This document shows, piece after piece, positions 36,687 through 55,342 of a stretch of DNA of 64,000 bases. The stretch lies in assembly GCA_014729085.1 (NCBI GenBank), contig WJKM01000009.1:126590-190589 (forward strand), read 5' to 3'. Numbering within the stretch: the first letter of the stretch is position 1; each line of letters begins with the position of its first letter. A program made the translations under genes and the position numbers. Below the pieces are notes generated by a model that was not told the origin of the DNA, ran no database searches, and saw only the letters and a program-made list of their open reading frames with translations. Source of the DNA: Candidatus Dojkabacteria bacterium. GTDB lineage: Bacteria > Patescibacteriota > Dojkabacteria > B142 > WJKM01.

Positions 36687-37220
36687 GTGATACTTTCAGA
36701 TCAAGATATATTTCAAAAGATTATTAAGGAAGATATCAAAATTGAACCTTTTGATAAAAATAACATTCATCCCGCCAGTTACATCTTTACTTTGGGTAAT
36801 AACTTACTGAAACCTTTACAAACAAAAGTCATAGATATTAAAAATAATCAAATTCCTGAGTATAAGAAAATTAGTTTGGATGAAATAGGATATGGTTTAG
36901 AACCAGGTGAGCTTGTTTTAGGACAAACATTGGAAAAATTAACTTTACCCCGAGATGTAGCTATGATAATTGAGGGTAGATCTACACTTGCTAGAATGGG
37001 TATCGAAATTATCCAAGAATCAAGTTTTATTGAGCCGGATCATTCTAATTCAATTATTACATTAGAAATTATTAATAATAGCCAGAGCCCAATTATTTTA
37101 TATCCCGGAATGGAATGCGCAAAAGGGATCTTCATAAAATTGACCAGCGAATATAGTGGTGATTTCTCTTCATCTACTTATACAACCCAAACGGAAGTTG
37201 AAGGGCCAAAGTTTGAATAG
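36687..37220 (+). CDS. dcd: dCTP deaminase (dUTPase superfamily)
   Basis: MILSDQDI N-terminus, ASY, IEGRSTLARMGI motifs of the Dcd family. Confidence 0.7.
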   Translation: MILSDQDIFQKIIKEDIKIEPFDKNNIHPASYIFTLGNNLLKPLQTKVIDIKNNQIPEYKKISLDEIGYGLEPGELVLGQTLEKLTLPRDVAMIIEGRSTLARMGIEIIQESSFIEPDHSNSIITLEIINNSQSPIILYPGMECAKGIFIKLTSEYSGDFSSSTYTTQTEVEGPKFE

Positions 37221-38193: not shown

Positions 38194-38268
38194 GGCCCCA
38201 TAGTATAACGGCTAGTACACCGGGTTTTCATCCCGGCGATAGGGGTTCGATTCCCCTTGGGGTCACCA
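38194..38268 (+). tRNA. tRNA-Glu (anticodon UUC), CCA encoded; target of an integrative element
   Basis: GGCCCCA acceptor, anticodon stem-loop CCGGG-UUUUCAU-CCCGG, T-arm AGGGG-UUCGAUU-CCCCU, UGGGGUC-A-CCA 3' end. Confidence 0.85.
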
Positions 38269-39739
38269 TCATAGAATTTTTCACTTCAAATGCTTCATTT
38301 AACTCAACTGACAATGGTTTTGTTGGTGTTGTAAAATTTTCATTTTTGTATATCAATCCTTGAGGAAATATGAATTTTTCGAACTTATTTTGCTGAAATT
38401 CATCCATCTTTGTCCATGCTTTACTCATATTTTTTAAAAGAACAACGCTAAATTTTATTAATTTCTCCTCGTCTTTCTCTGGGTCTGAGTACCTAGTTAG
38501 CTCAATATCAATTTTAGAAATCTTTTCTTCTAAATCTCCAATATACCTTTTTGATAACTTGTCGTTATAAATACCATTTAAATTTTTCTCAACAACTTTA
38601 TCTTGTTTTGCTCTTAATGTTCTTTTTTCTTTCTTAAGTAGATTTACTTTACTTTGTATTTCCTTGGTCCGATTTTTCCAATTTAAGATAATTGCTTCTT
38701 TTACCAATTTACCAACATCTTTCTTTAGTTTTATCTCTTTTAGATACTCTATAAAATTCTCTTCTACATCATACTTCCCTAAATTTATTCCACTACACTT
38801 AGTGCATCTATAATAACCATATTTTTTATATTTCCCCTGAGACCAGTTAGAAGTTAAGTAATTTCCACATTTTGCACATCTCAATACTCCTCTCAATGGA
38901 AAATCAGGATTAATCTTTTTATAAATTGGCAACTTTTTTGCTTTCCCATCCAAAATTAACTGCACGATATTGAAAAGTTTCGGAGTAACTATTGGTTCAA
39001 AACTACCTTTTAAATTCAATCCCATACTTGGCACATCAATATATCCCTTATAAACAGGATTTCTAAGCATTTTATAAAAGTGTGATTTACTTAACTTTTT
39101 ACCATTTTTCTTTTTCATTCCTATCTTATTAGCGTACTGCCTAACCTCTTCTTGACTTTTGTATCCTTTAGATATCTCTTGAAATACCTTTCTAATCTTA
39201 GGTTTTAGTTCTTTTACTGGAACAATGTTTGAGTTTCCACGTCCTCCTATATTCTTATATCCATATGGAGCCTTAAAAATATACCTACCTTGCTTAAGAG
39301 CCTCTACCATTCCAGCTTTAGTTCTATCCGCCCTGATTTCATTATCAAGCTGAGCGATATTTGCCATGGTATTTTCCATAAATCTTCCTATTGGATTGTC
39401 TTCAAAAGGCTCTGTTATAGAAATAACTTCGATTCCACAACTTCTAAAGAAGATTCTCAACTGTCCATAATCTGTGGAATTTCTTGAAAGTCTATCAACC
39501 TTGTATATCAATAAGGCATCATATTTCTTATCATTCAGTTTACAAAACCTCATCATTTTCTGAAGTTCCGTTCTGTCTACAGTTTTTGCACTTTCACCTC
39601 TTTCCACAAAAACCTTCTCAACTTCTATATCATTTTTTGAAGCATAATCTTTACAAAGCCTTTCCTGTGATTGAAGACTCATACCCTCTTCAGCCTGTTC
39701 GGTTGTGGACACCCTACAGTAGATTATTCCCTTTTTCAC
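38228..39739 (-). CDS. large serine recombinase (integrase)
   Basis: N-terminal resolvase catalytic domain GIIYCRVSTTEQ...LLIYKVDRLSRN, recombinase domain, Zn ribbon RCAKCGN...YYRCTKC, coiled coil; 503 aa. GTG start. The last 13 codons (MMVTPRGIEPLSPG) are the reverse complement of the tRNA-Glu 3' end. Confidence 0.85.
   Translation of the reverse strand: MKKGIIYCRVSTTEQAEEGMSLQSQERLCKDYASKNDIEVEKVFVERGESAKTVDRTELQKMMRFCKLNDKKYDALLIYKVDRLSRNSTDYGQLRIFFRSCGIEVISITEPFEDNPIGRFMENTMANIAQLDNEIRADRTKAGMVEALKQGRYIFKAPYGYKNIGGRGNSNIVPVKELKPKIRKVFQEISKGYKSQEEVRQYANKIGMKKKNGKKLSKSHFYKMLRNPVYKGYIDVPSMGLNLKGSFEPIVTPKLFNIVQLILDGKAKKLPIYKKINPDFPLRGVLRCAKCGNYLTSNWSQGKYKKYGYYRCTKCSGINLGKYDVEENFIEYLKEIKLKKDVGKLVKEAIILNWKNRTKEIQSKVNLLKKEKRTLRAKQDKVVEKNLNGIYNDKLSKRYIGDLEEKISKIDIELTRYSDPEKDEEKLIKFSVVLLKNMSKAWTKMDEFQQNKFEKFIFPQGLIYKNENFTTPTKPLSVELNEAFEVKNSMMVTPRGIEPLSPG
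38255..38268 (+). repeat. attL core (direct repeat copy 1, inside tRNA-Glu 3' end)
   Basis: Exact 14-mer CCTTGGGGTCACCA. Confidence 0.7.
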
Positions 39740-39888
39740 TTTTTATTCTCTTGTAAATATAAGTCAATTATCAGATTCGAAAAGCCATTAATTTGTTCTA
39801 TCAAAGAATCGATTTGATCTTGATCTTTGAAACCTAAGTTTTTCAACCTTTGACATAATACCTTATAGCTTTCATCAATTTTTTGCAT
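39736..39888 (-). CDS. small ORF (50 aa) translationally coupled to the recombinase; candidate RDF/regulator
   Basis: Hand-found: MQKIDESYKVLCQRLKNLGFKDQDQIDSLIEQINGFSNLIIDLYLQENKK. Its TGA overlaps the recombinase GTG start (GTGA). Below the ORF-track size cutoff. Confidence 0.3.
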   Translation of the reverse strand: MQKIDESYKVLCQRLKNLGFKDQDQIDSLIEQINGFSNLIIDLYLQENKK

Positions 39889-39983
39889 AGGCTAAAACAA
39901 TATACTGTCTTAGCCTGAGTGCCTCTCAGCGTCTAATTAATATTTAAAATTAGTTTAATATCCTGCTTTTTTTAGCTTAGATA

Positions 39984-40817
39984 CTAAACTTTGTAAACAT
40001 CTTCGAGTTTCATATTTACGATTTTTCCATCTCTTTTTGTAATTTGCACATTTGAGTAATTTTTGCTTTTAATTTGGTTGATTAAATCAAGTTCTGTTAA
40101 TGCTTTATCTGTATTATTTTCTTCACCATATACAGTGTAGGATTTATCAATATTTTTTTTAATTTTTATTTGCTTATAAGCACTATCCCTAATAATATTT
40201 ATGATTTCCTTTTCTTGTTGTGTTAGCTTTTCGTTCATTTCCTCAATATATTCACTCAACTCTTTATAATATGAAACTTCTATTCCGATTCCTGATTTTT
40301 TTATTGCTTCTATAACTATTTCATTAAAATTGAAATATACAAAAGAGTCATGTTTAGTCATTAAGTATGCAAAAGAATTTATATCAGAAAAATATACATA
40401 ACCTTCTGATGTAATTACTAGATAAATCTTAACTGTTCCTATTACACTTAAGAAAAGTATATCTAGAGGTGGGTTTGTTACACTGTGCTGTTTTTCTAGA
40501 TTTTTATAAAAGTCCTTATCATAAAAAATATGTTTTAGATTTTGAAGTTGTTCGTTTGTTAGATTATATTTTCTAGCTTCATGTATGCATTGTAGATAGG
40601 TTAGATCCTTTATGCTGAATTTTCTCCACCCCTTTGATTTATCTCTTGAGTCTACTAACATTTCATCATTATCTAAAGAATTTATCTGCCTGTAAGTGAG
40701 TACACTATCTTTGACAGTATAAACCCTCTCTTCAAATGACTCGATGAAATCAGAACAATCTTTTCTCTTTCTGAGTCCCTTATATTGTTCTATTAAGTTT
40801 GGTGTAAGTAAAATCAT
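39984..40817 (-). CDS. hypothetical protein (element cargo)
   Basis: 277 aa, no recognised motif. Confidence 0.4.
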   Translation of the reverse strand: MILLTPNLIEQYKGLRKRKDCSDFIESFEERVYTVKDSVLTYRQINSLDNDEMLVDSRDKSKGWRKFSIKDLTYLQCIHEARKYNLTNEQLQNLKHIFYDKDFYKNLEKQHSVTNPPLDILFLSVIGTVKIYLVITSEGYVYFSDINSFAYLMTKHDSFVYFNFNEIVIEAIKKSGIGIEVSYYKELSEYIEEMNEKLTQQEKEIINIIRDSAYKQIKIKKNIDKSYTVYGEENNTDKALTELDLINQIKSKNYSNVQITKRDGKIVNMKLEDVYKV

Positions 40818-40894
40818 GGAATTATATGTTAATGTATAATTTATCTTACATGAATAGAATTATACAGTCAAGTATAATTTAAAGAGTTTTAAAA

Positions 40895-41275
40895 CTATGA
40901 AGCTGCAATTATTGAAAGTATCTTTGTGGTTTGTTCTTTTGTAAGTTCTGGATGAGGGTATATTCCTTTTCTGTAAGCTGTTATTATTCTTTCAATTAAG
41001 TTGAAAGGAATAGTCTTTGTCTGGTCCGTTGTCTCGAATCTAATTTGAACAGGGAACCTACCTTGCCAAGCATTACCTTCAATATTAATATTTGGAGCTG
41101 TAGTAGGTTTGTAGGGACCTGAAAATTCGAATGTTGATGTGTTGTACAAAAAGAGATAATCTTCAAGAGTAATTTTCATCATACTAGCTTTGACTGCTTC
41201 TTCTTCACCAAAAAGCATACGTTCAAATACTTCATCTTTTGTTTTGTCGTTGCATCTAAAAATATAACCTTTCAT
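40895..41275 (-). CDS. DCD (Development and Cell Death)-like PUA-fold domain protein
   Basis: Alignment by eye to plant DCD domains, hedged. GYIFRCNDKTKDEVFERMLFG ~ G(V/F)IFMCxxxTxxEClxxxLFGLP; LFLYNTSTFEFSGPY ~ LFLFNYSDRKLHGIF; NINIEGNAW ~ NINPYGW; PVQIRFE ~ PAQVQIRV; TKILSIIAAS ~ SKLISLLAS. 126 aa; start overlaps upstream gene stop (ATGA). Confidence 0.5.
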   Translation of the reverse strand: MKGYIFRCNDKTKDEVFERMLFGEEEAVKASMMKITLEDYLFLYNTSTFEFSGPYKPTTAPNINIEGNAWQGRFPVQIRFETTDQTKTIPFNLIERIITAYRKGIYPHPELTKEQTTKILSIIAAS

Positions 41276-41694
41276 TTTCTTACCTTTTTAGTTTCTAAAT
41301 GATTTTGAGTAATTGCAATAATATACATGTACTTACCAGCATAGAAATAAAATAATCTGGAAGTTTGAGCCCCTTTATGCTCTCTCAACTCTTCTACATC
41401 TTCTGGTAATTTCCTAAATAGCTTCTTATATTCTCCACTACAATATACCCTTTGTCTTTTAATATTATTTTTATCCAATGTTGTATTATTACACCCGCCT
41501 ATTGTTCTGATATCTTTAACAAACCTTTTGGATGCACTACCTGACAATGAAGATATTTCACTAATCTTATCATTAAAAAATTGAAAAGATATTAAAAAAG
41601 GTTCCCCTTCAGGATCTCCTCTATATGGATTTAAAGCAACTTTTTCGGGAATATATTTATTTGTAGCTGTTGTCTTTGGATCGGGTATTTGCAT
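41272..41694 (-). CDS. possible RelE/HigB(Gp49)-fold toxin-like protein
   Basis: C-terminus SRLFYFYAGKYMYIIAITQNH resembles the RelE/HigB C-terminal beta-strands (R-I-I-Y-x-F...Y-L-L-x-I). Weak. Overlaps both neighbours (translational coupling). Confidence 0.3.
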   Translation of the reverse strand: MQIPDPKTTATNKYIPEKVALNPYRGDPEGEPFLISFQFFNDKISEISSLSGSASKRFVKDIRTIGGCNNTTLDKNNIKRQRVYCSGEYKKLFRKLPEDVEELREHKGAQTSRLFYFYAGKYMYIIAITQNHLETKKVRK

Positions 41695-42221
41695 TAAGAA
41701 GACTTTTTAATTAAAGAAGAATAGTAAGCCTTCATATCTTCCAAACTAATAACATTATTTGAGCTAACAGATGCATGAATTTGCCCCCTTGCATTCTGCC
41801 ATGGATCTTCGTTATGTGACAACTGTTCTAAATAATCGCCATCATATTTCCCATATACCCTCCATATCTCCTCTAGTAAGTCCTGATTAGGTATATCTGA
41901 AATTTCTGCATCATTTACTTTCAGTTCAATTGGTCTATATCCATATTTCTTATATTTGTTGTATACTACCTTAATTGCAGGACCATGTACCCATGCTTCA
42001 ATTTCTTCTTTGAATATTGGCTCTTCCTTGTATACCAGATGCCAAGCTTGTGAATAGTACAAGAGCTTTTGTAATTGTTTATTTGTAATACTCTTACCTT
42101 CTTTGGACGCTTTCCAAATAAAAAATTTAGCGATATCTAATGCTGATTTCGTTTTTTGTTTTTTTGGTTTATTCATAAAAAGAAAGTAAGAACTTAACAT
42201 TATTATAAACGTAATTTTCAA
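41694..42221 (-). CDS. Panacea-domain (DUF4065, PanA/SocA-like) antitoxin-like protein
   Basis: KQLQKLLYYSQAWHLVYKEEPIFKEEIEAWVHGPAIKVVY matches the DUF4065 core (LQKLLYYaQ..hL...g.PLF.e.feAW.hGPV). Confidence 0.6.
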   Translation of the reverse strand: MKITFIIMLSSYFLFMNKPKKQKTKSALDIAKFFIWKASKEGKSITNKQLQKLLYYSQAWHLVYKEEPIFKEEIEAWVHGPAIKVVYNKYKKYGYRPIELKVNDAEISDIPNQDLLEEIWRVYGKYDGDYLEQLSHNEDPWQNARGQIHASVSSNNVISLEDMKAYYSSLIKKSS

Positions 42222-42239
42222 CTTTTCAATTCACTTTTA

Positions 42240-43289
42240 TCACTTTTTATAATCCAAATACTTCTTAATCTTATTATATTCTAAACACTTCATGTAGTTC
42301 TCCATATATTCGAAGTCTGGTTGATTTTGATTATTCATAGGTAACATTATTTTCTGTCGTTTTAATCTTGCTGTACCCATCTTGTAACCATAGCCATATT
42401 TAGCACGTTGTCTTGTTATCTGTTGAGATATAAATATACCTATATGTTTAGATGGGTTATTTAACCGTAATTTTCTACAATCATTTGAAAACAATGCCTC
42501 GTATGAATGATAAAAAGAATAGCCAACAGACCCATTTCGATTTACAGAAAGGCAACCTGCTTCTTTCGTTTTATTATCGTTGCTTACAAAATATCCGATA
42601 CCATTATTATTTGCAGTTGATGATACATAAGGCGTATTACCTGATATTCTTTCCTTTGCATAAATATCACGTCCAGATTCAATAGTGGCTACATCTTGAA
42701 TAAAAAACTCACCCCATTCTTTATCTTCTAATGGCTCAACATCTTTATAATCCTGCAATTCTGCTAATCTTTTTGAAACAACCTTTTTGTATTTATCCAA
42801 CTTATTTTGTTCTTTTTGCCTCATATAGGCTTCCATAAATTCATAGTCTGGGTTGCATTGTGAGTTGGTTGGTAAAAGTATTTTGCTTCTTCTCAATCTG
42901 GTTAGGGTTGCACCATTACTGCCCCAATTGAACTTATCCATTTGTCGAATGATTAAGGGGATAAGAAATTGTGCTATATCTTTGTTAAGGAACTCACTTC
43001 TTAAAACTTGGATATTCTGCCCTGTGTAAAACGATTTAGGCTGGTAGAAAACGGTTTGTGTATCAAGTCCAATTGTAATTACATTCCCTTCATCTAATTT
43101 GAATTTTTCTGCTTGCTTACCAATAAATGAATCCCACCCGTTATCTTTCTCAGAACGAGTTATATAAGGTGTATTACCTGTCTTATTACTTAATTTGTTA
43201 CGGTCGATACTACTTGATGAAGAATCAATATCAAAAGTATCTTCAAAAGTAAATTCCTTCCAGTTTTTATCTTCTAAACTTAATTTCAT
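42240..43289 (-). CDS. restriction-modification specificity subunit (HsdS-like; BcgIB-like)
   Basis: Two target-recognition-domain halves, each followed by a conserved TRLRRSKILLP/ARLKRQKIMLP ... PDYEFME/PDFEYME block; 349 aa. Confidence 0.75.
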   Translation of the reverse strand: MKLSLEDKNWKEFTFEDTFDIDSSSSSIDRNKLSNKTGNTPYITRSEKDNGWDSFIGKQAEKFKLDEGNVITIGLDTQTVFYQPKSFYTGQNIQVLRSEFLNKDIAQFLIPLIIRQMDKFNWGSNGATLTRLRRSKILLPTNSQCNPDYEFMEAYMRQKEQNKLDKYKKVVSKRLAELQDYKDVEPLEDKEWGEFFIQDVATIESGRDIYAKERISGNTPYVSSTANNNGIGYFVSNDNKTKEAGCLSVNRNGSVGYSFYHSYEALFSNDCRKLRLNNPSKHIGIFISQQITRQRAKYGYGYKMGTARLKRQKIMLPMNNQNQPDFEYMENYMKCLEYNKIKKYLDYKK

Positions 43290-43291
43290 AG

Positions 43292-45190
43292 TTATTTATC
43301 GTCATTTTCAAATAAATAATCTCTGCCTTGCATAATCATATTAAACTCAAAGGTAAGGTAATCACCTATAGTTTGCTCAAAGTCTTCTGGCTTTGGTATT
43401 TCGTCATTAAAGTAATAGAAAGAATGTAGCCATTCGTCATCTGGTTCTATGGTTGTTTTCACCATAAATTTAGTATCTGCTGGTGCATCATGTAGCCAAC
43501 AACTTAGTAAATGTTCTTTTCTTTCTTTTGCTCTCTCAGTTTCTACAAGTCCGATATGCTTACTTACCACAAATCCATCATCTTCAAAGTTAATAAATTT
43601 ACAATACTTTTTGAGGTTATGTGGTTTATGAGATGTAAATATGGCTATGCATGGATTAGTTCCAATACCATAGAATGTATCCTTATTTAGTGTAATTACA
43701 CCTTCCAAAGTATGTTTTTCTAATATTCTTTTTTTAACCTGTCTATCTTCTTTTGTTTTACCTACCATAGTTGATTGAGGAATTATGACAGCTGCTCGTC
43801 CTTTGTCAGTTAGACTATCAAGTAAATGTTCAATGAAATGTATTTCTGATAAATGTGCAGTATCTTTTCCTTTGGCTTGTGAATAAGGAGGATTCATTAA
43901 ACCTACAGTATAATTATTTTTCCTCATCTCTTCTGCACTTCTCTTGAGAAAGTCATCTTTTAAAAGATTACTCTTTCCATCTCCACGTAAAATCATATTA
44001 GTAGTTGCAATGGCAAACATATCTTCTCTAATTTCTATTCCGTGTATTTGTTCTCTTTTAATTTTATTCTGTTTATTCTTATCTGCCTTCTTTAACATCT
44101 TATACATTGCGGTAATCAAAAAACTTCCTGTACCACATGTGGGGTCAAAGACAATATCATTTGGTTTTATATCCAATAAATCACAAAATAATTCAGTAAT
44201 ATGACTAGGAGTTAATACAACACCCAAAGTTTGACCATCACCACCACTATATCTAATAAATTCACCATAAAAACGTCCTAGAACATCCTCTTTAGAGTTT
44301 GCTACAACGCTATCAAAAACATTCTTTTTTAAATATTCAGTAAAGTATTTCAGCGGTGTTTTCTCTAGTCTTTTATCTACCTGATTAAGTATAGTTCTAT
44401 CCATTACAATATTAAATTGACTCAAAACTTGCTCCTTTTTGATTTCTGGCTTTACCTCAACACGTGTCATGTGTGTAGATAAAGCATCAAATATTATATT
44501 TCCATCTGTTTTTACGCTATCTCCTTTTAATAAGTCTGGAATATCTGGATTCTCATTTAAAGCTAGGAGAATAGCAGATACGACAAGGGGTTTTTCCTTA
44601 TCTCCAAGTTGTCCATAGTTTCTTAAATCTTCGTGAAGTGCTTTCGATTTCTTTAGTATTACTTCTAATTCAACCGTTTCGGGTGGCGTTTCATTAAGTA
44701 CCTGTTCTTTATAGTATCGTACGATATTTTCTTTAGAAAAATTTTCAAAATTTTCAACTGGTTCTAATAATATATATTCGTTTTCATTGACATATATAGG
44801 TCGAATCATGTGATGTTTCTCATCACCAGAACAACCAAAAGCAAATACCTTTTTGAAATTTGTTTTCTGTACTATTTGCCTAGCATAGTGCAAAGCCCCA
44901 TTTTCTGCATATTCAGTTATCGATTTTGTATCTGTTGCGAGATGAGAGTTGCTCTCATCTTCATATCTTGCTTGTTTGTCTAAATCAGCTTTATCCTCCA
45001 TTACAAGAATAAACTCATCTGATTTAGCTGTAAATTCTGGAAAGCCTACATTCCCTGTACCTTTCTTTGATGAAGTTTTTAGTGCATTTTCTATCTCTTT
45101 AATCCCACTTCCATTTGGTGTAAATTTAATGCCCACCTTGCCAAGTAATTTACCAACAAAGAAGTCAGTTATTTTTTCATTTTTACTCAT
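43292..45190 (-). CDS. fused endonuclease/N6-adenine methyltransferase subunit (BcgIA-like Type IIB/IIG; alternatively HsdM)
   Basis: Gamma-class MTase motifs FDPTCGTGSFL (motif I) and NPPYS (motif IV); N-terminal region with candidate PD-(D/E)xK (SDEFILVMEDK). 632 aa and 349 aa partner sizes resemble BcgI A/B (about 637/341 aa from memory); no HsdR is present in the element. Confidence 0.65.
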   Translation of the reverse strand: MSKNEKITDFFVGKLLGKVGIKFTPNGSGIKEIENALKTSSKKGTGNVGFPEFTAKSDEFILVMEDKADLDKQARYEDESNSHLATDTKSITEYAENGALHYARQIVQKTNFKKVFAFGCSGDEKHHMIRPIYVNENEYILLEPVENFENFSKENIVRYYKEQVLNETPPETVELEVILKKSKALHEDLRNYGQLGDKEKPLVVSAILLALNENPDIPDLLKGDSVKTDGNIIFDALSTHMTRVEVKPEIKKEQVLSQFNIVMDRTILNQVDKRLEKTPLKYFTEYLKKNVFDSVVANSKEDVLGRFYGEFIRYSGGDGQTLGVVLTPSHITELFCDLLDIKPNDIVFDPTCGTGSFLITAMYKMLKKADKNKQNKIKREQIHGIEIREDMFAIATTNMILRGDGKSNLLKDDFLKRSAEEMRKNNYTVGLMNPPYSQAKGKDTAHLSEIHFIEHLLDSLTDKGRAAVIIPQSTMVGKTKEDRQVKKRILEKHTLEGVITLNKDTFYGIGTNPCIAIFTSHKPHNLKKYCKFINFEDDGFVVSKHIGLVETERAKERKEHLLSCWLHDAPADTKFMVKTTIEPDDEWLHSFYYFNDEIPKPEDFEQTIGDYLTFEFNMIMQGRDYLFENDDK

Positions 45191-45266
45191 TTGAGAATTA
45201 TATTTTTAAACATAAAGAAATTACTATTTTTATAATAAAGCACTTAGCTATAGATAGCAAACTACC

Positions 45267-46403
45267 TTAGACAAGGTTTATTTGACATTTTTCTGTATTC
45301 ATTTTTTCTTCAGATAGCAACTCATTAGTAATGGATTTGAACTCTGAAATTTGTGCATTAATTTCATTTCGAATATTTGAATATTCATAATCATCAAATT
45401 CTTTTAAAACTTTCTTACATAATTTCCATACTCTTTTAGTAGTAGTGTTGCTATATCTATTTTCAAAAATCTCTTTTGCCTTATGAATACCTAAATCACT
45501 ACATAACCTAAAACAAGTAATAATTGCCCATTCCTCACTTGGTTTTATGTCTTGGTCCCAAATATATTCATACATTCTTTTGATAGTAGGTAATCGCATA
45601 GGAATAAACTTAAATTCATCAGAAAACAAGCTCTTATTCAAATCATAGAGTAGTATCTTTTTGCTTAAACCACTATCAAAGATATCTTTAAGTGTAAGGC
45701 GTTCAACTTTCCTTCCTAATGCCCATGAATATTTTGCGTTTGTTCTCTGATAATTTTGCATGCGATATTCAAATCTTAGAATATTATTTTGTTTTAAATT
45801 CTGAACAAGTCCTTTTTCTTTATCTGTTTTATGATTAATCGCAACTAAAGAGGGGGCTTTTGCATATATTCCAATTCCCGTTGAAGTTGTAAATTCTCGA
45901 ATGGAAACACCATTTTCTTTATAATTTTCAAACTTTAAAGAGTGTCTCCATTTCCACCATAATCTTCTTGTAAATTCAATAAACTCAGTAGCTCCAACTG
46001 GACCATCTAGAATTATATTTTTCGATACTGTAGCAAAAGACACATAGCTATTTTTAAGTGCTTCGTTTGATATATTTATTCCCATATCATAAAGCTTTTT
46101 AGTAAAGTTACCTATAAAGTCATCGAAATCTTCATTTGATAACTCTTCTACATTATTTTCAAATAGTATTTTAGGAGCAGAAAATTCAATGTAAAGCTTG
46201 CCATTACCTCGAAAAGTTAAACTTGGATAATACTCACCTGTTGTATCTATCAACTGACCTTGCTTTATAAATCGTTTCTCCTTGATATCCATCTCGGGCT
46301 TTCTTAACATAAGGACTTTATAAACTTTCCCATAAATATCTTGAACTTGAATAGGTTTAATTATTTGATAGTTTGTTGTGTTTATTTTTATTGTATCTAG
46401 CAT
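45267..46403 (-). CDS. hypothetical protein (element cargo; possible replication/partition function)
   Basis: 378 aa, first large gene inward of attR; no confident motif. Confidence 0.35.
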   Translation of the reverse strand: MLDTIKINTTNYQIIKPIQVQDIYGKVYKVLMLRKPEMDIKEKRFIKQGQLIDTTGEYYPSLTFRGNGKLYIEFSAPKILFENNVEELSNEDFDDFIGNFTKKLYDMGINISNEALKNSYVSFATVSKNIILDGPVGATEFIEFTRRLWWKWRHSLKFENYKENGVSIREFTTSTGIGIYAKAPSLVAINHKTDKEKGLVQNLKQNNILRFEYRMQNYQRTNAKYSWALGRKVERLTLKDIFDSGLSKKILLYDLNKSLFSDEFKFIPMRLPTIKRMYEYIWDQDIKPSEEWAIITCFRLCSDLGIHKAKEIFENRYSNTTTKRVWKLCKKVLKEFDDYEYSNIRNEINAQISEFKSITNELLSEEKMNTEKCQINLV

Positions 46404-46684
46404 TTTTACTCTGGTAACCAGTTATATCAGTTCTCTTATCAATTTTAATTAAGATTTCAAAGAATTTAACTAACCTTTGCATTTCTAATTCTGTTAGTTT
46501 TAAAGATTCTTTTTTCTTCATGATTGCTAGTTTAAGAAATAATTAACTAGCTTTTTATCATGAACCAAGTATTTTTGTATTACACGGCGGTATATATTCA
46601 AACAAGAAGCGGTTGAAGTTTGAAATTCTTAATGAAGTAACCAAGCTCTACAAGCCTTTCGTGGAAAGTGTTGTAAAATGATTT

Positions 46685-46698
46685 CCTTGGGGTCACCA
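46685..46698 (+). repeat. attR core (direct repeat copy 2, tRNA-Glu 3' fragment)
   Basis: Exact 14-mer CCTTGGGGTCACCA preceded by GATTT (near-match to tRNA GATTCC). Confidence 0.7.
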
Positions 46699-47161: not shown

Positions 47162-50100
47162 ATGACCAAACCGCTCAAAAAGGTCTTGATTGAAACTATC
47201 CACATTATTCACAATACAGTAAAAAGAGTACAGCTAAAAAACTTAAAGCTGTATTTTTTTATTTTGCCTTTTTTGCTTTTAACATTTACACCTGTTTTTG
47301 CTCAAACGACAGACGAATATAATTACTCAGATTGTGGATTTGTTATCGATGATTCAGATTCAGGTTGTTCAGAAGCATATGGTAATTGGAAACTACAGAA
47401 AATAGGAAATAAAGGGACATCATTACTTTCTCCAAAAGACACTTTCTTGCCTTCTGTTACATGGGTTCCAGATTATAAAAACCTGAAAGGGCAGGTTGAG
47501 GTATTTGCAACCATTCCAAGAATTGAGGGAGAAAATTTGTCCGAAGTTGCTTGGTACAAAATAAAACATAGTGAGGGTACAAGCGATTATTTTGTAAATC
47601 AAAAAGAAAATGCAGGAGATATAGTATCACTTGGAATATATAATTTCGATGGAACCGAAGTTTCAATAGATTTATATGGATCTGGTGGTGAGGTAGTTGT
47701 GGCAGATACTGTTTGTTTTGGTAGATGCTCAATAGGTGACATAACTCCACCAAGGATTGAAGAAGTTAAAGGACATAGTTATATGGGAGAATTACATGTT
47801 CAGTCAAAAATAACAGATGAAGGGACAGGTGTAAAGAATGCTTATGTATCAATTCAGGGAAATATTTACCCTATGAATGCAAAAGGAGATATTTATTCAG
47901 CGATTGTTCCATATATTCCAGGAACTGATTTGGAATGGTATATTCTTACATATGACAACGCAGGAAATGAAGCTATATGGGAACCTGGGCGTGGATATGT
48001 AACAAGAGGGGGAGGTTTAAATTTAGGAGTACCACCTGAGGCTGTTGATTTTGTTTGCTATAAAGAAGAGTTTAATAATACAGTCCCACCTGCAACACCA
48101 GGATCAGATCCATGTGAATGGACAACAGGAGATCCTGTAAATACTGTAAACGGAAATTTAATGGAAAGTGTAAATTTAATAAATATTTCCGGACGTCCTT
48201 CAATTAACCTTACTATCTACTATAACAGTCAAGGTACAGGTCTCTCAATTTTCGGTGAAAGTTGGCTTTATGATTATAATTACCATGTAACAGAGATGGA
48301 TAACGCTGACTTCAGTGGGGCTTTTGTGCAATATCCTTCAGGTAGCAATGCAATGTTCGAAAACTTCAAGTCTCCAGATGGAGTAAGAGACAAACTTGAA
48401 AAAATAGGAGATGGGTATCTTCTTACTCTTCAAGATCAGACAAAAATCTATTTTGATTCAAATGGAGATATTTCTAGATGGGAAGATATTAATAGAAATG
48501 GTCTAAACTTTGAATACTCAGAACAGATTAAATTTGTAAATTTTTCAAAGCTGTCAAAGATAACAGCAGATTCAGGTAGAAAAATTACATTTGAATACAA
48601 TGATGTTGGTTTAGTTTCTCAAATAAACGCACCAGAGAATAAAATTATCAAATTCGAATACAATGACACAGATGATTTAATTAAAATAATCAAACCTAAA
48701 GAAAGAGGGATTATATTTGAATACGATAATCACAGCATTACAAAAAAAATCAGTCCACAGGGACATGCATACTACGAAAATATCTTCGATAATCAAAGAA
48801 GAGTTATAAAACAAGTTGCAGGTACATCATTTACGCAGGAATATATTTATAATGACAATGAAACAATAGTTAAAAATCTTAACGGTTCACAAGCTGTCTA
48901 TAGTTATAACGAGGATTACTTAATGGTCAGCAATACAGATGAAGTTGGGAATACCAAGACATTTGAATACAACAATAAAAAGCAGATAATAGCTGAAATC
49001 GACGCTGAAGGGAAACGATATGAATACACATATGATGAAAATGGCAACCAGATACATATAAAAGATCCAATGGGATATGAGATAGAAAGAGAATTCAATG
49101 AATTTAATAAACCTGTAAAAGAAATCAACCAGAATGGAAAAGAAACTAGATGGGAATATGACAAAAAGGGAAATTTAGTCAAAATAATTAACTCAAATGG
49201 CAACGAAAAAATATTCAGCTATAACGAATATGGACAACTAATTGAGCAAACAGACTTTAATGGAAATAAAACTGTTTTCAAGTATACAGCTGAAGGTGAT
49301 CTTAAAAAGATAATAGATGCAGATGGAAATGAAATTGTATATACATACGATGAACTTGGAAGAATATTGACTGAAACAAACAAACGTGGGATTACCTACA
49401 CATACACCTATGATGTAAATGACAATCTTCTTAAAATTGAGGGACCTCTTGGATATACAAAATCATTTGAATATGACAAAAATAACAGACTTATTAAAGA
49501 GACTGACTCTAAACAAGAAATGATTTCGTATACATACGACAATTCGGAAAATATTTCTTCCATCTCAAATCAACTGCAATTTGTTACGAGTATGGAGTAC
49601 GGATCAATGAACGAATTTGCAAAAGGAATAGATGCTGAGGGACATATAACTGAATATGCATATCATCCTACGTACAAAATATCTCAAGTTAGACAGGCAG
49701 CTGGAACCTCAAAAGAAGCTATTTCTAATTTTGAATATAACAACGTAAAACTTCAAAAAAGAATTATAGATGCAGAAGGAAAGATTACCGAGTTTGTATA
49801 TGATGATTTATATAGAATAGTTAAAAAAATTGGAGACGTGAACGGAATTGAAATTGAAACACGTTTTAAGTACAATCCTGTTGGAGCCCTTGTTAAACAA
49901 ATCGATCCAAACGGAAATGCAGTTGAATATACTTTAGATAATTTAGATAGAGTAATCGAGCAAAAAGATGCCGAAGGAAACATTACAAAGTACGAATACG
50001 ACCCGAACTCAAACATTATAAGCACAACCAATCCAAGAGGCTTTAAGACAAAATTTGAATACAATAAGTTAAACCAACTTGTAAAGCAAATCAATTCAAT

Positions 50101-53100
50101 TGGTGCAGAAACAGAATACGAATATGACGGAAATGGGAATTTAGTTAAACAGGTTAATCCAAACGAAACAAGTACCAAGTTTATCTACGATGAGCTTGAT
50201 CGAATGGTAAGAGAAGAAAAATACTCAGAAGAAGATGAATTGTTAATTCAAATAAGATATGAATATGACTTAAATGGAAACATAACCAAAATAATAAATC
50301 CAAGAGGCTTTGAAACAAAATTTGAGTACGATGCAGCGAATCAAAATACAAAGATAATAGATGCCTATGGCAACATTATTGAATTTAAATACGATAAAGT
50401 AGGAAACAAGATTGAAACAATAGACAGAAATGGAAATTCAACAACAAATGTATATGACGAACTTAATAGAATAGTTGCAGAGATAAATGCAGAAAATAAT
50501 AAAACAAGTTATGGATACAACAAAGTAAATAACTTAACAAACATAACTGATGCAAAAGGCAACATTACAACATTAAAATATGATGGAGTAAACAGACTTA
50601 TTCAAAAAATTGATCCTTTGTCTGGTGAAACAAAAAAAGAATACGATCCTGCTGGAAATGTTTTAAAAGATATAGATCAGAATGGTCATGAGACAATCAA
50701 TGAATATGACAAAATAAACAGACTAATTAAAACAACCAATGCAGAAGGAGGAGTAAAAGAAATAAAATATGACAAAAATAGCAATATCGTAGAAATAAAA
50801 GACGAAAATGGAAATATTTCTCAAAATACATACGACAAACTCGATAGACTAGTTAAAACAGTAGATGCAGAAAATCAGGTAACAAAATACGAATATGATG
50901 TAATGGGAAATATGATTAAAAAGACAAATCCAAGAGGATATGAAACAAAATATGAATACGACGCTCTAAATAGACTTACTAAAACTATCGATGCAAAAGA
51001 AGGAGAAACAATATTTGAATATGATGAAAACTCAAATGTAGTTAAAACAATAGACCCAAATGGGATTTCTACAAAACACATCTATGATAAGTTAGATAGA
51101 CTGATTACTAAAATAGAAGCTCATGAATCCCTCCTTCATCAAGATTCCGGAGGGCAGGCAGGTGGAGGAGAAGCTGATACCAATGTCACAACACAATATA
51201 AATACGACAAAGAAGGAAATATTATTGAAGTAGTAAATCCAAAAGGAAATTCAACAAAGTTTGAATACGACAAGATATACAGACAAACGAAAATTACAGA
51301 TGCAAAAGGGAACTATACAAAATTTAAATACGATGAGGTAGATAATGTAGTACAAGTAACGGATAGAAATGGAAATGTTTCTACAAAGGAATATGACGCA
51401 CTAAGAAGAATTGTAAAGGAAATAAATGCAGAAAACCATAAGACAGAATATAGATATGATCCAAAAGGAAATATTAAAACAACAATAGACCCAAGAGGAA
51501 ATCCAACAAAGTTTGAGTACGACAAAATAGACAGATTAACTCAGACAATAGACGCCCTGGGCGGAGTTTGGAAAACCGAATACGATGCAGTGGGGAATGT
51601 TTTAAAAGAAACAGATGCAAATGGACATGCCAATAAGTACGAATACGACAAAGTATACAGGACTACAAAACAAACAAATGCAGAAGAACATTTTTCAAAA
51701 TTCAAATACGATGAAAATGGGAATGTCATTGAGACGCAAGACAACAATGGAAATGTAACATCATTCACATATGATGAACTAGATAGACTTGTTAAAAAAA
51801 TAGATGCGGAAGATGGAGAATGGTTATACGAATACGATGCAGTAGGAAATCTTCTATCTGAAACAGATGCAAACGAACACACAGACACGTACGAATACGA
51901 TAATATGTACAGATTATCGGTTCTCACAGACGCAGAAGGAAATACAACAAAATATGTTTACGACCTAAATGGCAATACAGTAGAAATAATAGATGGGAAT
52001 GGAAATTCAACAGAGAATGAAGTTGACGCTCTAGACCTCGTTATCAAAGTAACAAATGCTGAAAACGAGACAACAGAATATACTTACGATAAAGAGGAAA
52101 ATAAGATAAATAAGATAGATCCGGATGGTGTTGTTACTCACTTTGATTACGACAAGATTTATCAGCTTGTTAAAGTAACTCTGAATTACAAAGATACAAA
52201 CTTTACTGACTTTGATACAAATGTAGACACAAGCTACGAATATGATCCAAATGGGAATTTAACTAAAATCACAGATCCGAAAGTAAATGCTACAACTTTT
52301 GAGTACGATGCTTTAAATAGACAAATAAAGGAAATAGATGCAGAAGGAAATATTTGGAGATTTGAATATGATCCTGTTGGAAATAAAACAAAGAGAATAG
52401 ATGCAAACGGTAATTCTACAGTTTATGGATATTACGCAGACGATCAACTTCAAAATATCAGTTATTACGATGGGACAAACACATCATATGAATACGATCC
52501 AAATAACAATAAGATAAATATGCAGGATAGAATTGGAACAACAGATTGGACGTATGATGCATTAAATAGAAATACTTATGTAAATGATGCATTGAACAGA
52601 GAACTCACATACACATATGATCCAGTTGGAAACAGAACAAGTATGAAATATCCTGACGGAAAAATAGTAAAGTATTCCTACCTAAAAAATGACTGGATAA
52701 ACACATTCACAGATCCAGAACAAGGAGTAGTTAAATACGATAAAGACCATGTAGGAAATACAGTATTTATAGATAACCCAAATCAGACACAAACAACAAT
52801 AGATTATGATCGTGTATACAGACCTACAGAAATTCTCAATGAACAAATAGAGCAGGCTGCAAAAACAAACTCCAGATTTGAATATACATACAACGAAGTA
52901 GGACTTAAAACAGAAGTAGAAGCAGAATATGCGTGGAGAAAACCAAGTGTAGTTAGAACAGAGTACGTTTACGACAAGCTAAGAAGACTAAAGGAATCGG
53001 AAGATTCAGAAAACAAGTATTACGAATATCTTTATGACAGAGCAAGCAATAGAACCCGGATGCAAACTAACGACGATGAAACAACACCAAACCAATATGA

Positions 53101-55342
53101 CGGAATAAAACAAGGCTATAAATACAATAATATAAATCAGGTAATAGAAATAATAGAAGAAGGTGTGAGTGATATAACGAAAAAAAGAACACAAGGAAGA
53201 AGTCAGACATTTATTTATTTAGAAAATACTCTAGGTTTAAGAAATAAATATCACAATTTGGTAAATGAAATTGAGGCTCAACGAGGAGGACATATACCCG
53301 AAGAAACAGCAGAAGAACTTCTAGATTTATTGGAAAGGTTAGAGATGTTAGAAGGAGAAGAGAGTACAATTCTTTATGAGGATGCGATATTAATAATTGA
53401 AGAAGTAATAACAATAATAGAAGACGAAGTAGTACATGAAGGAACATTAAACAGCTTGCTTGCAAAAGTAGATGATGTAGAGCTAGAGGCAAAAGAGAAA
53501 GGCAGAGAAGTTGAGTGGAAAGAAAAGAAAGAGATAAATACACAAAAAAAGAATCTACTGAAGACAACAACATTTAGATACGATAATAATGGAAATAGAA
53601 TAAACGAACAATGGACCATGCCTAACGGCAGGCAGACCGGATCAACAGGACCTGCCTACCAAGGATTTGATTTTGGATATGATCCTGAAAATAGATTAAC
53701 AATTGCAATGAACTATCAACAAAATGACACAGGGAACAGAGTAGATAGAGGAGTAACAACAATGAATTACGATGGAGATGGAAGAAAACTAGTTAAGGTA
53801 TTTGATCCAAAAAGTCCGTTGGGGGAATGGGCAGATCCAAATCCACTTGATCCAGCATATGGAGTAGATGGAGGAGCTAAGAACATAGAATACGTATACG
53901 ACAATCTAGATCCAGTAGCTGAATATAATACATGGAACTCTCAACACGACAACTTCTACCGTGCCAGAGGGCAGGCAGGTAGAGGAGACATGAATAGAAT
54001 AGTAATGATGCAAAACTTCAAATCAGGGACACAGGGTCAGCGTTATTGGTACCACTATGATGCTTTAGGTTCAACTGTGGGACTTACAAAACACTCAGGA
54101 CAGTCACACCACAACTATAGATACGGAGATTTTGGACTTATTGAGACTATTACTGGGAAATCTGGAAACACATCAGGAGGAACATTTACAGATCCACATA
54201 ACCACTACACCTACACAGGGCAGGAGTGGGATGACCATATGAATGTATATGAATTCTACTCAAGAACTTACGATCCCTATACCGGCAGCTGGATGAGGCA
54301 GGATGATTATAGAGGGGATATCTCAGATCCAATGTCACTTCATAGGTATATGTATGTGAATCAAAATCCTATTAATTGGTGGGATTTATATGGTTACAAG
54401 ACAAATAATATTCCTATTTTGGGTCCTATTAATCATAAAAGTAATCAAATTAATAAAAGTATTAATTATGAACCTACCGTACTTACTCAACAAATCATGG
54501 AGTCTGTCAGACTAAGTTATGATCCATGCAATCGACAAACTTTTGATAAAGGATTCTTAATACCTACCGAATTGGAATCTCTTGCTGGAGGAGCAGCATT
54601 TGTACATAGGATGGGTTATAATATGTCAGATGGATTGTTTCTTGGTTCAATTGAGAATACTATATATATGCAAGAATCACAGAAAGATTTTGCAAGAAGA
54701 ATTTTCGATCAAGAATATAGAGAGAATGCTTTATATCCAGAACGATATCCTTTAAGAAAAACAAGAGAAGATTGGAGAGAGTTTAATGACAAGATTACAT
54801 TTTCTCTTGGAGTAAATCCACACAAACAAGTAAATAATGGATTGGCAACAAACATATTTGAAGGAACAGTAAATTCACTAACAGATCCACAGCCTGTAGG
54901 TTCAACACAATGGACATATGACACATTAAATATGGGTTTTGAGGGATATATGGTGTATAGTACGGTTACAGCAATAGATGACTTTTTAATGAAGAGAATA
55001 CCTGGAAATAATTCTATAAGTAGAAGACCAGCACAAGATGTGGTGCAGTATGAGATGTATAAGGAGCAGCTCAAATCGCAGCAAGCAGCTACAGTATTTA
55101 CTCAAAATGGGGAGTTGAAACCAAACGTGATTAGTAATAGTCATAGCATTATCGATGGAAAAGATTTGAAAAATCCTAGTGTAATTAAAGAATTGACTAA
55201 AGATGGATCAAAGATAGATAGTTGGGAGAAAATGAGTACTGATTCATACCCTAGTCCATCGGGAGATTTTCAAGTTCATTATTATCAAAATAAGGATACC
55301 GGTAAGATATATTATAATATTGATTATAAGGCTAAATTTTAA
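47162..55342 (+). CDS. rhs: RHS/YD-repeat polymorphic toxin (signal peptide, N-terminal domain, YD-repeat shell, RHS core, variable C-terminal toxin)
   Basis: Signal peptide; DPVNTVNGNL plug motif; dozens of YD repeats (YEYDxxGNL...); RHS core end YDPYTGSWMRQDDYRGDISDPMSLHRYMYVNQNPINWWDLYGY (degenerate DPxGL); ~310 aa unique C-terminal domain. 2726 aa. Confidence 0.9.
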   Translation: MTKPLKKVLIETIHIIHNTVKRVQLKNLKLYFFILPFLLLTFTPVFAQTTDEYNYSDCGFVIDDSDSGCSEAYGNWKLQKIGNKGTSLLSPKDTFLPSVTWVPDYKNLKGQVEVFATIPRIEGENLSEVAWYKIKHSEGTSDYFVNQKENAGDIVSLGIYNFDGTEVSIDLYGSGGEVVVADTVCFGRCSIGDITPPRIEEVKGHSYMGELHVQSKITDEGTGVKNAYVSIQGNIYPMNAKGDIYSAIVPYIPGTDLEWYILTYDNAGNEAIWEPGRGYVTRGGGLNLGVPPEAVDFVCYKEEFNNTVPPATPGSDPCEWTTGDPVNTVNGNLMESVNLINISGRPSINLTIYYNSQGTGLSIFGESWLYDYNYHVTEMDNADFSGAFVQYPSGSNAMFENFKSPDGVRDKLEKIGDGYLLTLQDQTKIYFDSNGDISRWEDINRNGLNFEYSEQIKFVNFSKLSKITADSGRKITFEYNDVGLVSQINAPENKIIKFEYNDTDDLIKIIKPKERGIIFEYDNHSITKKISPQGHAYYENIFDNQRRVIKQVAGTSFTQEYIYNDNETIVKNLNGSQAVYSYNEDYLMVSNTDEVGNTKTFEYNNKKQIIAEIDAEGKRYEYTYDENGNQIHIKDPMGYEIEREFNEFNKPVKEINQNGKETRWEYDKKGNLVKIINSNGNEKIFSYNEYGQLIEQTDFNGNKTVFKYTAEGDLKKIIDADGNEIVYTYDELGRILTETNKRGITYTYTYDVNDNLLKIEGPLGYTKSFEYDKNNRLIKETDSKQEMISYTYDNSENISSISNQLQFVTSMEYGSMNEFAKGIDAEGHITEYAYHPTYKISQVRQAAGTSKEAISNFEYNNVKLQKRIIDAEGKITEFVYDDLYRIVKKIGDVNGIEIETRFKYNPVGALVKQIDPNGNAVEYTLDNLDRVIEQKDAEGNITKYEYDPNSNIISTTNPRGFKTKFEYNKLNQLVKQINSIGAETEYEYDGNGNLVKQVNPNETSTKFIYDELDRMVREEKYSEEDELLIQIRYEYDLNGNITKIINPRGFETKFEYDAANQNTKIIDAYGNIIEFKYDKVGNKIETIDRNGNSTTNVYDELNRIVAEINAENNKTSYGYNKVNNLTNITDAKGNITTLKYDGVNRLIQKIDPLSGETKKEYDPAGNVLKDIDQNGHETINEYDKINRLIKTTNAEGGVKEIKYDKNSNIVEIKDENGNISQNTYDKLDRLVKTVDAENQVTKYEYDVMGNMIKKTNPRGYETKYEYDALNRLTKTIDAKEGETIFEYDENSNVVKTIDPNGISTKHIYDKLDRLITKIEAHESLLHQDSGGQAGGGEADTNVTTQYKYDKEGNIIEVVNPKGNSTKFEYDKIYRQTKITDAKGNYTKFKYDEVDNVVQVTDRNGNVSTKEYDALRRIVKEINAENHKTEYRYDPKGNIKTTIDPRGNPTKFEYDKIDRLTQTIDALGGVWKTEYDAVGNVLKETDANGHANKYEYDKVYRTTKQTNAEEHFSKFKYDENGNVIETQDNNGNVTSFTYDELDRLVKKIDAEDGEWLYEYDAVGNLLSETDANEHTDTYEYDNMYRLSVLTDAEGNTTKYVYDLNGNTVEIIDGNGNSTENEVDALDLVIKVTNAENETTEYTYDKEENKINKIDPDGVVTHFDYDKIYQLVKVTLNYKDTNFTDFDTNVDTSYEYDPNGNLTKITDPKVNATTFEYDALNRQIKEIDAEGNIWRFEYDPVGNKTKRIDANGNSTVYGYYADDQLQNISYYDGTNTSYEYDPNNNKINMQDRIGTTDWTYDALNRNTYVNDALNRELTYTYDPVGNRTSMKYPDGKIVKYSYLKNDWINTFTDPEQGVVKYDKDHVGNTVFIDNPNQTQTTIDYDRVYRPTEILNEQIEQAAKTNSRFEYTYNEVGLKTEVEAEYAWRKPSVVRTEYVYDKLRRLKESEDSENKYYEYLYDRASNRTRMQTNDDETTPNQYDGIKQGYKYNNINQVIEIIEEGVSDITKKRTQGRSQTFIYLENTLGLRNKYHNLVNEIEAQRGGHIPEETAEELLDLLERLEMLEGEESTILYEDAILIIEEVITIIEDEVVHEGTLNSLLAKVDDVELEAKEKGREVEWKEKKEINTQKKNLLKTTTFRYDNNGNRINEQWTMPNGRQTGSTGPAYQGFDFGYDPENRLTIAMNYQQNDTGNRVDRGVTTMNYDGDGRKLVKVFDPKSPLGEWADPNPLDPAYGVDGGAKNIEYVYDNLDPVAEYNTWNSQHDNFYRARGQAGRGDMNRIVMMQNFKSGTQGQRYWYHYDALGSTVGLTKHSGQSHHNYRYGDFGLIETITGKSGNTSGGTFTDPHNHYTYTGQEWDDHMNVYEFYSRTYDPYTGSWMRQDDYRGDISDPMSLHRYMYVNQNPINWWDLYGYKTNNIPILGPINHKSNQINKSINYEPTVLTQQIMESVRLSYDPCNRQTFDKGFLIPTELESLAGGAAFVHRMGYNMSDGLFLGSIENTIYMQESQKDFARRIFDQEYRENALYPERYPLRKTREDWREFNDKITFSLGVNPHKQVNNGLATNIFEGTVNSLTDPQPVGSTQWTYDTLNMGFEGYMVYSTVTAIDDFLMKRIPGNNSISRRPAQDVVQYEMYKEQLKSQQAATVFTQNGELKPNVISNSHSIIDGKDLKNPSVIKELTKDGSKIDSWEKMSTDSYPSPSGDFQVHYYQNKDTGKIYYNIDYKAKF
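48400..53200 (+). repeat. tandem YD-repeat coding array within rhs
   Basis: Recurrent xYxYDxxGN(L/I)xxxxD units at protein and DNA level; these generate the spurious antisense ORFs listed in the track. Confidence 0.8.

Follow-up and report, generated by a model that had tools for sequence, protein, structure and literature searches.

Within a 64,000-nucleotide window of a Candidatus Dojkabacteria genome (contig WJKM01000009.1 of assembly GCA_014729085.1, positions 126,590 to 190,589 of the forward strand) lie three overlapping minus-strand genes, which encode a Panacea-domain protein (PanA; ORF1), a small protein with a predicted RelE/ParE-type fold (ORF2) and a protein formed by a DCD (Development and Cell Death) domain (ORF3). 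This cassette is probably two modules side by side, a PanA/RelE-fold toxin-antitoxin (TA) pair and a DCD reader linked to restriction-modification (RM), rather than one three-part machine. The trio was seen once only, in the window, while the pair occurs without DCD in four lineages and DCD occurs without the pair at approximately 20 loci; pair and DCD each recur independently, the trio is not a conserved system, and beside the pairs inspected elsewhere DCD was never found as a third gene. A prior reading, made from the letters of the window (hereafter the sequence-only reading), had proposed a single tripartite TA or abortive-infection module. Its TA component survives as the conserved ORF1-ORF2 pair, but the inclusion of DCD as a member is not supported. 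The arrangement is most simply explained if two modules accreted within the cargo of an integrative element, downstream of a type IIG/IIB-like RM system.

The genes were delimited from a listing of open reading frames (ORFs) and a reading of the reverse complement, ORF1 being listed as 41694-42221, ORF2 as 41272-41694 and ORF3 as 40895-41275. ORF1 and ORF2 overlap by 1 nt (TAATG) and ORF2 and ORF3 by 4 nt (ATGA), so that the tight coupling described by the sequence-only reading is borne out at both junctions. All three are real genes and not chance ORFs, since ORF1 and ORF3 each match a Pfam family and ORF2 has 204 homologous cluster representatives. They are probably transcribed together from a promoter-like site before panA, reading from 42229 to 42202, which is the best consensus match in the region, although such sites are no more numerous here than in shuffled sequence. 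PADLOC has no model for PanA, ORF2 or the DCD protein. In protein searches, the products of ORF2 and of the DCD gene each had a 100% identical counterpart in a Candidatus Dojkabacteria assembly (WS6, candidate phyla radiation).

ORF1 matches SocA_Panacea (PF13274) with an E-value of 3.5e-20 and 73.4 bits against a cut-off of 25.7, which identifies its product as a Panacea antitoxin-domain protein with a predicted antitoxin role. It also matches NCBIfam SocA_antitoxin (E 9e-19, under the equivalog cut-off) and, alone among the three proteins, a PHROG (1281; E 1.5e-46), and it is 56% identical to the 162-aa PanA of the closest pair lineage (L001-L003). The sequence-only reading was correct about the domain. 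The ORF as listed begins at a TTG (42221), giving 175 aa; this start was rejected in favour of the ATG at 42176, because homologs of the PanA family are 156-162 aa long and their alignment begins at this ATG (MNKPKK...), and because the promoter-like site falls inside the longer ORF. PanA most likely comprises 160 aa (41694-42176).

Relatives of ORF2 are numerous but remote. A word-indexed search found one only (P0002, 51% identity), while a HMMER scan with a two-sequence profile against 1.84 billion cluster representatives recovered 204 proteins at E<=1e-3, 85 of them at E<=1e-10, mostly 135-150 aa in length. No model for this family exists in Pfam, NCBIfam, PADLOC or PHROG. ORF2 itself comes closest to Gp49/HigB in Pfam (E 0.0039; 17.7 bits, under the 23.9 cut-off) and to MAG6450_fam in NCBIfam (E 0.007, also under cut-off); five of 68 family members gave weak Gp49 matches when compared with Pfam, with no family assigned, and the family profile found no toxin among PDB sequences, the best and irrelevant match being uL22 (E 0.53). 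Judged by these searches, ORF2 lies outside every existing sequence family. An AlphaFold2 model from a 52-sequence alignment (pLDDT 82.7; >88 over residues 30-130) has the element order beta-alpha-alpha-beta-beta-beta, equivalent to RelE/ParE beta1-alpha1-alpha2-beta2-beta3-beta4, preceded by a low-confidence N-terminal extension of roughly 30 residues. The model places ORF2 in the RelE/ParE-superfamily fold; Foldseek matches to RelE/ParE-type folds all have E >1e-3 and identity to solved structures of the superfamily is 9-14%. Hence the RelE/HigB call of the sequence-only reading, offered there as weak, remains sub-threshold in sequence and proves right at the level of fold. Three residues are invariant in the family alignment (Y89, R113 and F115) and two are near-invariant (E105 and H132).

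A 156-162-aa Panacea gene stands directly upstream of an ORF2 homolog in all five lineages that were read, the window included, in surroundings that are otherwise unrelated. The two genes overlap by 1 nt in the window, and their junctions in the other four lineages lie between an overlap of 8 nt and a gap of 15 nt. These four lineages comprise a locus that includes a sister element, L002 (L001-L003; 51% ORF2 identity); a contig bearing a Por_Secre_tail gene of type IX secretion (L027/L028; ~40%); a Vogelbacteria locus immediately upstream of the S14-S8-L6 ribosomal genes (L029; ~30%); and a locus in which the pair follows a 1680-aa helicase (L030/L031; 27%). No DCD gene is found next to the pair in any of the four. 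Restriction genes adjoin it in the window (type IIG/IIB-like RM) and in L002 (R.HinP1I). The pair has the features set out in the published operational criteria for Panacea antitoxin-toxin (PanAT) loci (PMC8832971), and panA and ORF2 behave as a conserved toxin-antitoxin-like unit. One 306-aa protein, P0088, unites the two domains in a single polypeptide, with Panacea at residues 34-128 and the ORF2-family domain at 184-306; it is either a toxin fused to its antitoxin or the product of a read-through in gene calling. In the metagenome-assembled genome (MAG) of Vogelbacteria, the pair (L029, 3512-4718) lies 88 nt upstream of S14-S8-L6-L18-S5-L15-SecY, with an N6_N4 methyltransferase and a His-Me endonuclease ~2.5 kb further upstream; the ribosomal protein cluster seems here to have received an insertion of defence cargo.

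The full length of ORF3 matches Dev_Cell_Death (PF10539) with E 2.3e-20 and 73.1 bits, where the cut-off is 27.8, and the match spans positions 2-125 of the 126 in the profile. The Pfam comparison proposed in the sequence-only reading thereby gave significant matches for the first and third ORFs alike, and its assignment of the third to a DCD-like PUA fold is upheld. The 36 homologs of the DCD protein are 47-62% identical to it and every one contains PF10539; the four that carry names all belong to candidate-phylum bacteria (two Dojkabacteria, Woesebacteria and WS6). A scan of genome contigs returned 3 DCD loci only, and a scan of viral contigs returned no relative. We compared ~20 distinct loci of DCD homologs, searching every ORF against reference proteins (BLAST 1e-4) in flanks of up to 8 kb on each side, and found no Panacea or ORF2 homolog at any of them. 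This neighbourhood survey, which the sequence-only reading had suggested, placed nearly all the relatives of DCD beside restriction genes and disclosed no trio outside the window.

RM genes, mostly of type I, adjoin DCD in at least 12 of the relative lineages, and the DCD gene of the window has RM genes 1 kb upstream on its own strand. DCD directly follows a type I HsdR in L004, the L005 group, L010/L018 and L016, follows HsdR and one unknown gene in L008/L011 and L038, and follows HsdS in L021 and L025; it is divergent from a type I operon in L013/L035, L019 and L037, stands beside an N6-methyltransferase in L014 and L024, and precedes an HsdM-like start in L017. Elsewhere it follows a YgjP-like peptidase (L026), lies between SMODS and a GmrSD_N/HNH type IV enzyme (L034), or precedes Fic on another small element with its upstream side cut off (L032, the closest relative at 62%). 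Prokaryotic DCD and standalone EVE proteins are known to occur beside type I RM, where modified-base reading has been predicted (Bell et al. 2020, PMC7641849). From this family knowledge and from context, we infer that the DCD protein is a modified-base reader linked to RM and not to the Panacea-ORF2 pair.

Several of these loci have features of their own. The L032 contig, which ends on the upstream side of the DCD gene, also bears a tyrosine integrase, a serine recombinase and an HTH_17 protein. In L034 (28-3477), a SMODS+AGS_C nucleotidyltransferase, DCD and a GmrSD_N/HNH type IV restriction-like protein form a block with gaps of 5 and 4 nt, that is, a CBASS-like gene, a modified-base reader and a modification-dependent nuclease. 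The type I operons of L005, L006 and L009, from Dojkabacteria, end with a DCD gene and have a 521-aa reverse transcriptase (RVT_1; L005 ~605-2170) between HsdS and HsdR. On the WS6 OLB20-like contigs of L008 (4399-5995), DCD shares an ATGA overlap with a preceding 198-aa protein whose C-terminal half is hydrophobic, and downstream of it come a HAD-family hydrolase gene and, at a greater distance, one with a Macro domain, an order that recalls but does not match PUA-effector-HAD systems. In the window itself, a dCTP deaminase-like protein (36687-37220; PF22769), ~1 kb from the element, belongs to a family that is also abbreviated 'DCD' and has no relation to PF10539 (Development and Cell Death); annotations may confuse the two.

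The cassette and the RM genes are cargo of an 8.4-kb element (38194-46698) integrated at tRNA-Glu, since the repeat at the 3' end of this tRNA (CCTTGGGGTCACCA) recurs once, at the far end of the block (Table 1). The repeat has two copies only in the window and none were expected in 100 shuffles. This agrees with the RM-adjacent, mobile-element setting that had been proposed from the letters alone. Directly upstream of panA, on the same strand, the RM system has a fused endonuclease-methyltransferase and a separate specificity subunit, which is the type IIG/IIB layout; the fused protein matches PADLOC REase_MTase_IIG at E 8.5e-180 over residues 4-629 of 632 and Pfam N6_Mtase at E 7.8e-38, and contains an NPPY motif in translation. 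We take this two-subunit layout to be BcgI-type. Downstream of the cassette come genes for a 277-aa backbone protein and a large serine recombinase, with an ORF of 50 aa between them; the 3' end of the recombinase gene overlaps the tRNA. The sister element L002 has the order REase (R.HinP1I) - panA - ORF2 - X - 269 aa - 54 aa - serine recombinase, where X is a 139-aa gene unrelated to DCD that occupies the DCD slot. The backbone is common to both elements (recombinases 55% identical; the 277-aa and 269-aa proteins, in the same position, 33% identical at E 3e-41), and in the cargo of L002 R.HinP1I replaces the type IIG/IIB-like RM system. The 378-aa protein within the repeat bounds has no match in Pfam, PADLOC, PHROGs or NCBIfam.

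Table 1. Features of the integrative element and its cassette, in window coordinates.
Feature	Position	Strand	Evidence or remark
tRNA-Glu(UUC), integration target	38194..38268	+	ARAGORN; last 14 nt (38255-38268) are an att repeat copy
Large serine recombinase, element integrase	38228..39739	-	Resolvase E 1e-31, Recombinase, Zn_ribbon_recom
277-aa element backbone protein, weak MerR-like HTH	39984..40817	-	MerR_1 E 0.002, under cut-off
Standalone DCD (PUA-like) protein, 126 aa	40895..41275	-	PF10539
Candidate panT toxin, 140 aa, predicted RelE/ParE-superfamily fold, unannotated family	41272..41694	-	overlaps panA by 1 nt
panA, standalone Panacea (DUF4065/SocA-like) predicted antitoxin, ~160 aa	41694..42176	-	PF13274, NCBIfam, PHROG, homologs
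Promoter-like site TTGAAA-16-TATAAT, in gap between S gene and panA	42202..42229	-	consensus match 11/12
Specificity (S) subunit	42240..43289	-	Pfam Methylase_S E 2.6e-33; PADLOC Specificity_II E 2.2e-55
Fused restriction endonuclease / N6-adenine methyltransferase, type IIG/IIB-like	43292..45190	-	PADLOC, Pfam
378-aa element protein of unknown function, within repeat bounds	45267..46403	-	
Second 14-nt repeat copy (CCTTGGGGTCACCA), far element end	46685..46698	+	direct-repeat search, alignment

Just outside the element (47162-55342) is a gene for a 2726-aa RHS-repeat protein, with 21 RHS repeats, DUF6531 and Golvesin_C, followed by a 169-aa ORF of no family (55352-55861); the two resemble a polymorphic toxin and a possible immunity gene.

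Taking together the gene structure, the domain and fold identities, the conservation of the pair, the linkage of DCD to RM and the boundaries of the element, we propose the following mechanism. PanA would bind and sequester or neutralise the RelE/ParE-fold toxin, as in a PanAT-type type II TA system, and loss or triggering of PanA, whether through phage infection or loss of the element, would release the toxin. Once free, it would most likely cleave translating mRNA on the ribosome through E105, R113, H132 and Y89, and the resulting growth arrest could serve abortive infection, post-segregational retention of the 8.4-kb element and its RM genes, or both. The DCD protein probably recognises nucleic acid or nucleotides that are methylated or carry some other modification, and would thus assist restriction by the adjacent N6-adenine type IIG/IIB-like RM system.

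Several points weigh against a division into two modules, or against the TA character of the first. The DCD gene shares an ATGA with ORF2 and no promoter-like gap precedes it, for which reason it is expected to be expressed with the TA pair, and this would fit a functional link too. Relatives of DCD are coupled, by an overlap or a gap of <=21 nt, to a preceding HsdR, HsdS, SMODS, YgjP-like peptidase or unknown protein, and a Fic_N+Fic gene begins 16 nt after the closest relative (L032, 18-1509); given such tight coupling to varied neighbouring genes, DCD could be a plug-in partner of neighbouring effectors and not simply an RM accessory. The context of the pair was inspected in five lineages only, the window counted, and ORF2 reaches none of the Pfam thresholds for RelE, HigB or ParE. 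PanA could also, by analogy with SocA, be a protease adaptor. In a genuine tripartite system, which we regard as unlikely, DCD would serve the PanA/RelE-fold module as its sensor or as a specificity subunit, binding a modified base or nucleotide (for example m6A DNA, RNA, or m6-dAMP from the methylated host chromosome during infection) and then releasing the toxin from PanA or steering it to its target. Besides the ATGA coupling of ORF2 to DCD and the single promoter-like site upstream of panA, such a system could appeal to the toxin-like genes with which DCD relatives are operonically coupled (Fic, SMODS, GmrSD and RNxxxH HEPN-like proteins, with PIN nearby), to the 25 accessory third-gene clusters reported with PanAT pairs (Kurata et al., PMC8832971), and to a preprint in which PUA-like domains lie within N6-adenine RM operons, paired with diverse effectors, and a PUA-like domain senses m6-dAMP and switches on its effector (10.64898/2026.01.15.699771). 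However, the trio is single, the pair lacks DCD even in the syntenic sister element, and the neighbours of DCD are mostly RM subunits and not toxins; a conserved HEPN partner was considered and is retained as no more than a hint, since RNxxxH motifs do occur in several neighbours, but these proteins are mutually dissimilar by BLAST and their Pfam HEPN assignments are sub-threshold. The more general suggestion, which we find doubtful, is that the standalone DCD proteins found in candidate-phylum bacteria act as plug-in sensors for modified bases or nucleotides and couple translationally to any effector that stands before or after them (HsdR, GmrSD, SMODS, Fic or HEPN-like proteins), the effector in the window being a PanA-guarded RelE-fold toxin. 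If true, the cassette would be a methylation-sensing abortive-infection switch tied to N6-adenine RM, and would offer a prokaryotic precedent for the role of DCD in the death of plant cells.

The remaining alternatives concern individual proteins. Instead of a ribosome-dependent mRNase, ORF2 might be a gyrase poison like ParE or a RelE-fold protein with no enzymatic activity, which is distinctly improbable and would preserve the TA character of the pair with a different target. There is rather little likelihood that panA and ORF2 are a regulatory or phage-derived pair without toxicity and not a TA module at all, although neither protein is matched by a PADLOC model, ORF2 falls under all family thresholds and PanA matches phage protein families of unknown function; set against this are a conserved bicistronic layout of the kind used to predict PanAT loci, a toxin-type fold, the fusion protein, and the restriction genes that adjoin the pair in the window and L002 or, in L029, lie ~2.5 kb away as an N6_N4 methyltransferase and an endonuclease. 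It is very improbable that DCD is an enzyme, for instance a hydrolase of ASCH/YqfB type whose task, as accessory to RM or as detoxifier, would be to remove or process a base modification. The invariance of R7, C8, K11, T12, E15, W70 and Q77 across 33 homologs would suit such a role, and a related protein of the ASCH group, YqfB, has N4-acylcytidine amidohydrolase activity (PMC12707154), but conservation of this kind suits a binding pocket equally, and no catalytic activity is reported for any DCD domain in the literature examined. We retain the reading of a TA pair beside an RM-linked reader as the probable one.

Each part of the cassette belongs to an already known kind of system and the three-gene arrangement, as it stands, is a juxtaposition seen once, on one small integrative element. 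An unannotated family of candidate toxins with a predicted RelE/ParE fold (~200 sequence clusters), consistently paired with Panacea, extends the PanAT network into candidate-phylum bacteria, and genes for bona fide DCD domains repeatedly stand, in these bacteria, at the end of restriction operons. The linkage of DCD to restriction supports and widens the prediction of Bell et al. (PMC7641849) that modified bases are read in defence. A sensor role of DCD towards the toxin is a tentative idea that we would not favour; if DCD does control neighbouring effectors, these genes would make bacteria a tractable model for studying what the domain does biochemically in plant cell death.

Among known systems the pair is nearest to PanAT. 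As there, a Panacea gene lies immediately upstream of, and overlaps, a small toxin-fold gene, in mobile or defence DNA and in a layout conserved across species; ParE-domain toxins are already listed among the partners of PanA (Kurata et al. 2022, PMC8832971) and standalone Panacea has been shown to neutralise directly (Ernits et al. 2023, PMC10440598). The window differs in that its toxin family has no Pfam, NCBIfam, PADLOC or PHROG model and carries the ~30-residue N-terminal extension, in the appended DCD gene, and in the distribution of the ORF2 family among candidate-phylum MAGs and one contig with type IX secretion (Por_Secre_tail). The PanAT survey was presumably RefSeq-based, and would then probably have missed genomes of these kinds. 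Compared with the RelE/ParE superfamily, ORF2 is longer (140 aa against ~85-105 aa in RelE, HigB/Gp49, YoeB, YafQ and ParE), is partnered by Panacea and not by RelB, HigA, YefM, DinJ or ParD, and has no significant match to the Gp49/HigB, RelE, ParE, YoeB or YafQ sequence models. The TAC chaperone systems, paaR-paaA-parE and mazEF-mazG likewise consist of three small, co-oriented, overlapping genes including a toxin and an antitoxin, with the toxin of the window being predicted RelE/ParE-fold, but their third gene is kept with the pair whereas DCD is not.

The DCD protein resembles the EVE and DCD readers (PMC7641849) as a small standalone PUA-like protein at the edge of an RM operon, with relatives beside HsdR, HsdM and HsdS and one beside a GmrSD-like protein. 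Prokaryotic DCD has been described as rare and mostly archaeal or hyperthermophilic (PMC7641849), whereas the named members of this family all come from mesophile-type candidate-phylum MAGs (Dojkabacteria/WS6 and Woesebacteria), and the DCD of the window has a type IIG/IIB-like system as its RM partner, from which a TA pair separates it. Identity with the PUA-Cal-HAD system (10.64898/2026.01.15.699771) was rejected, because no calcineurin or HAD domain occurs among the proteins of the element; in L008 a HAD gene does follow DCD, with no calcineurin match. Although the window has no calcineurin-CE/HAD partner, its DCD is a separate protein, and the PUA-like family described there may not include DCD, both associate a PUA-like domain with N6-adenine methylation systems and varied effectors, and PUA-Cal-HAD supplies a tested precedent for a PUA-like sensor of infection.

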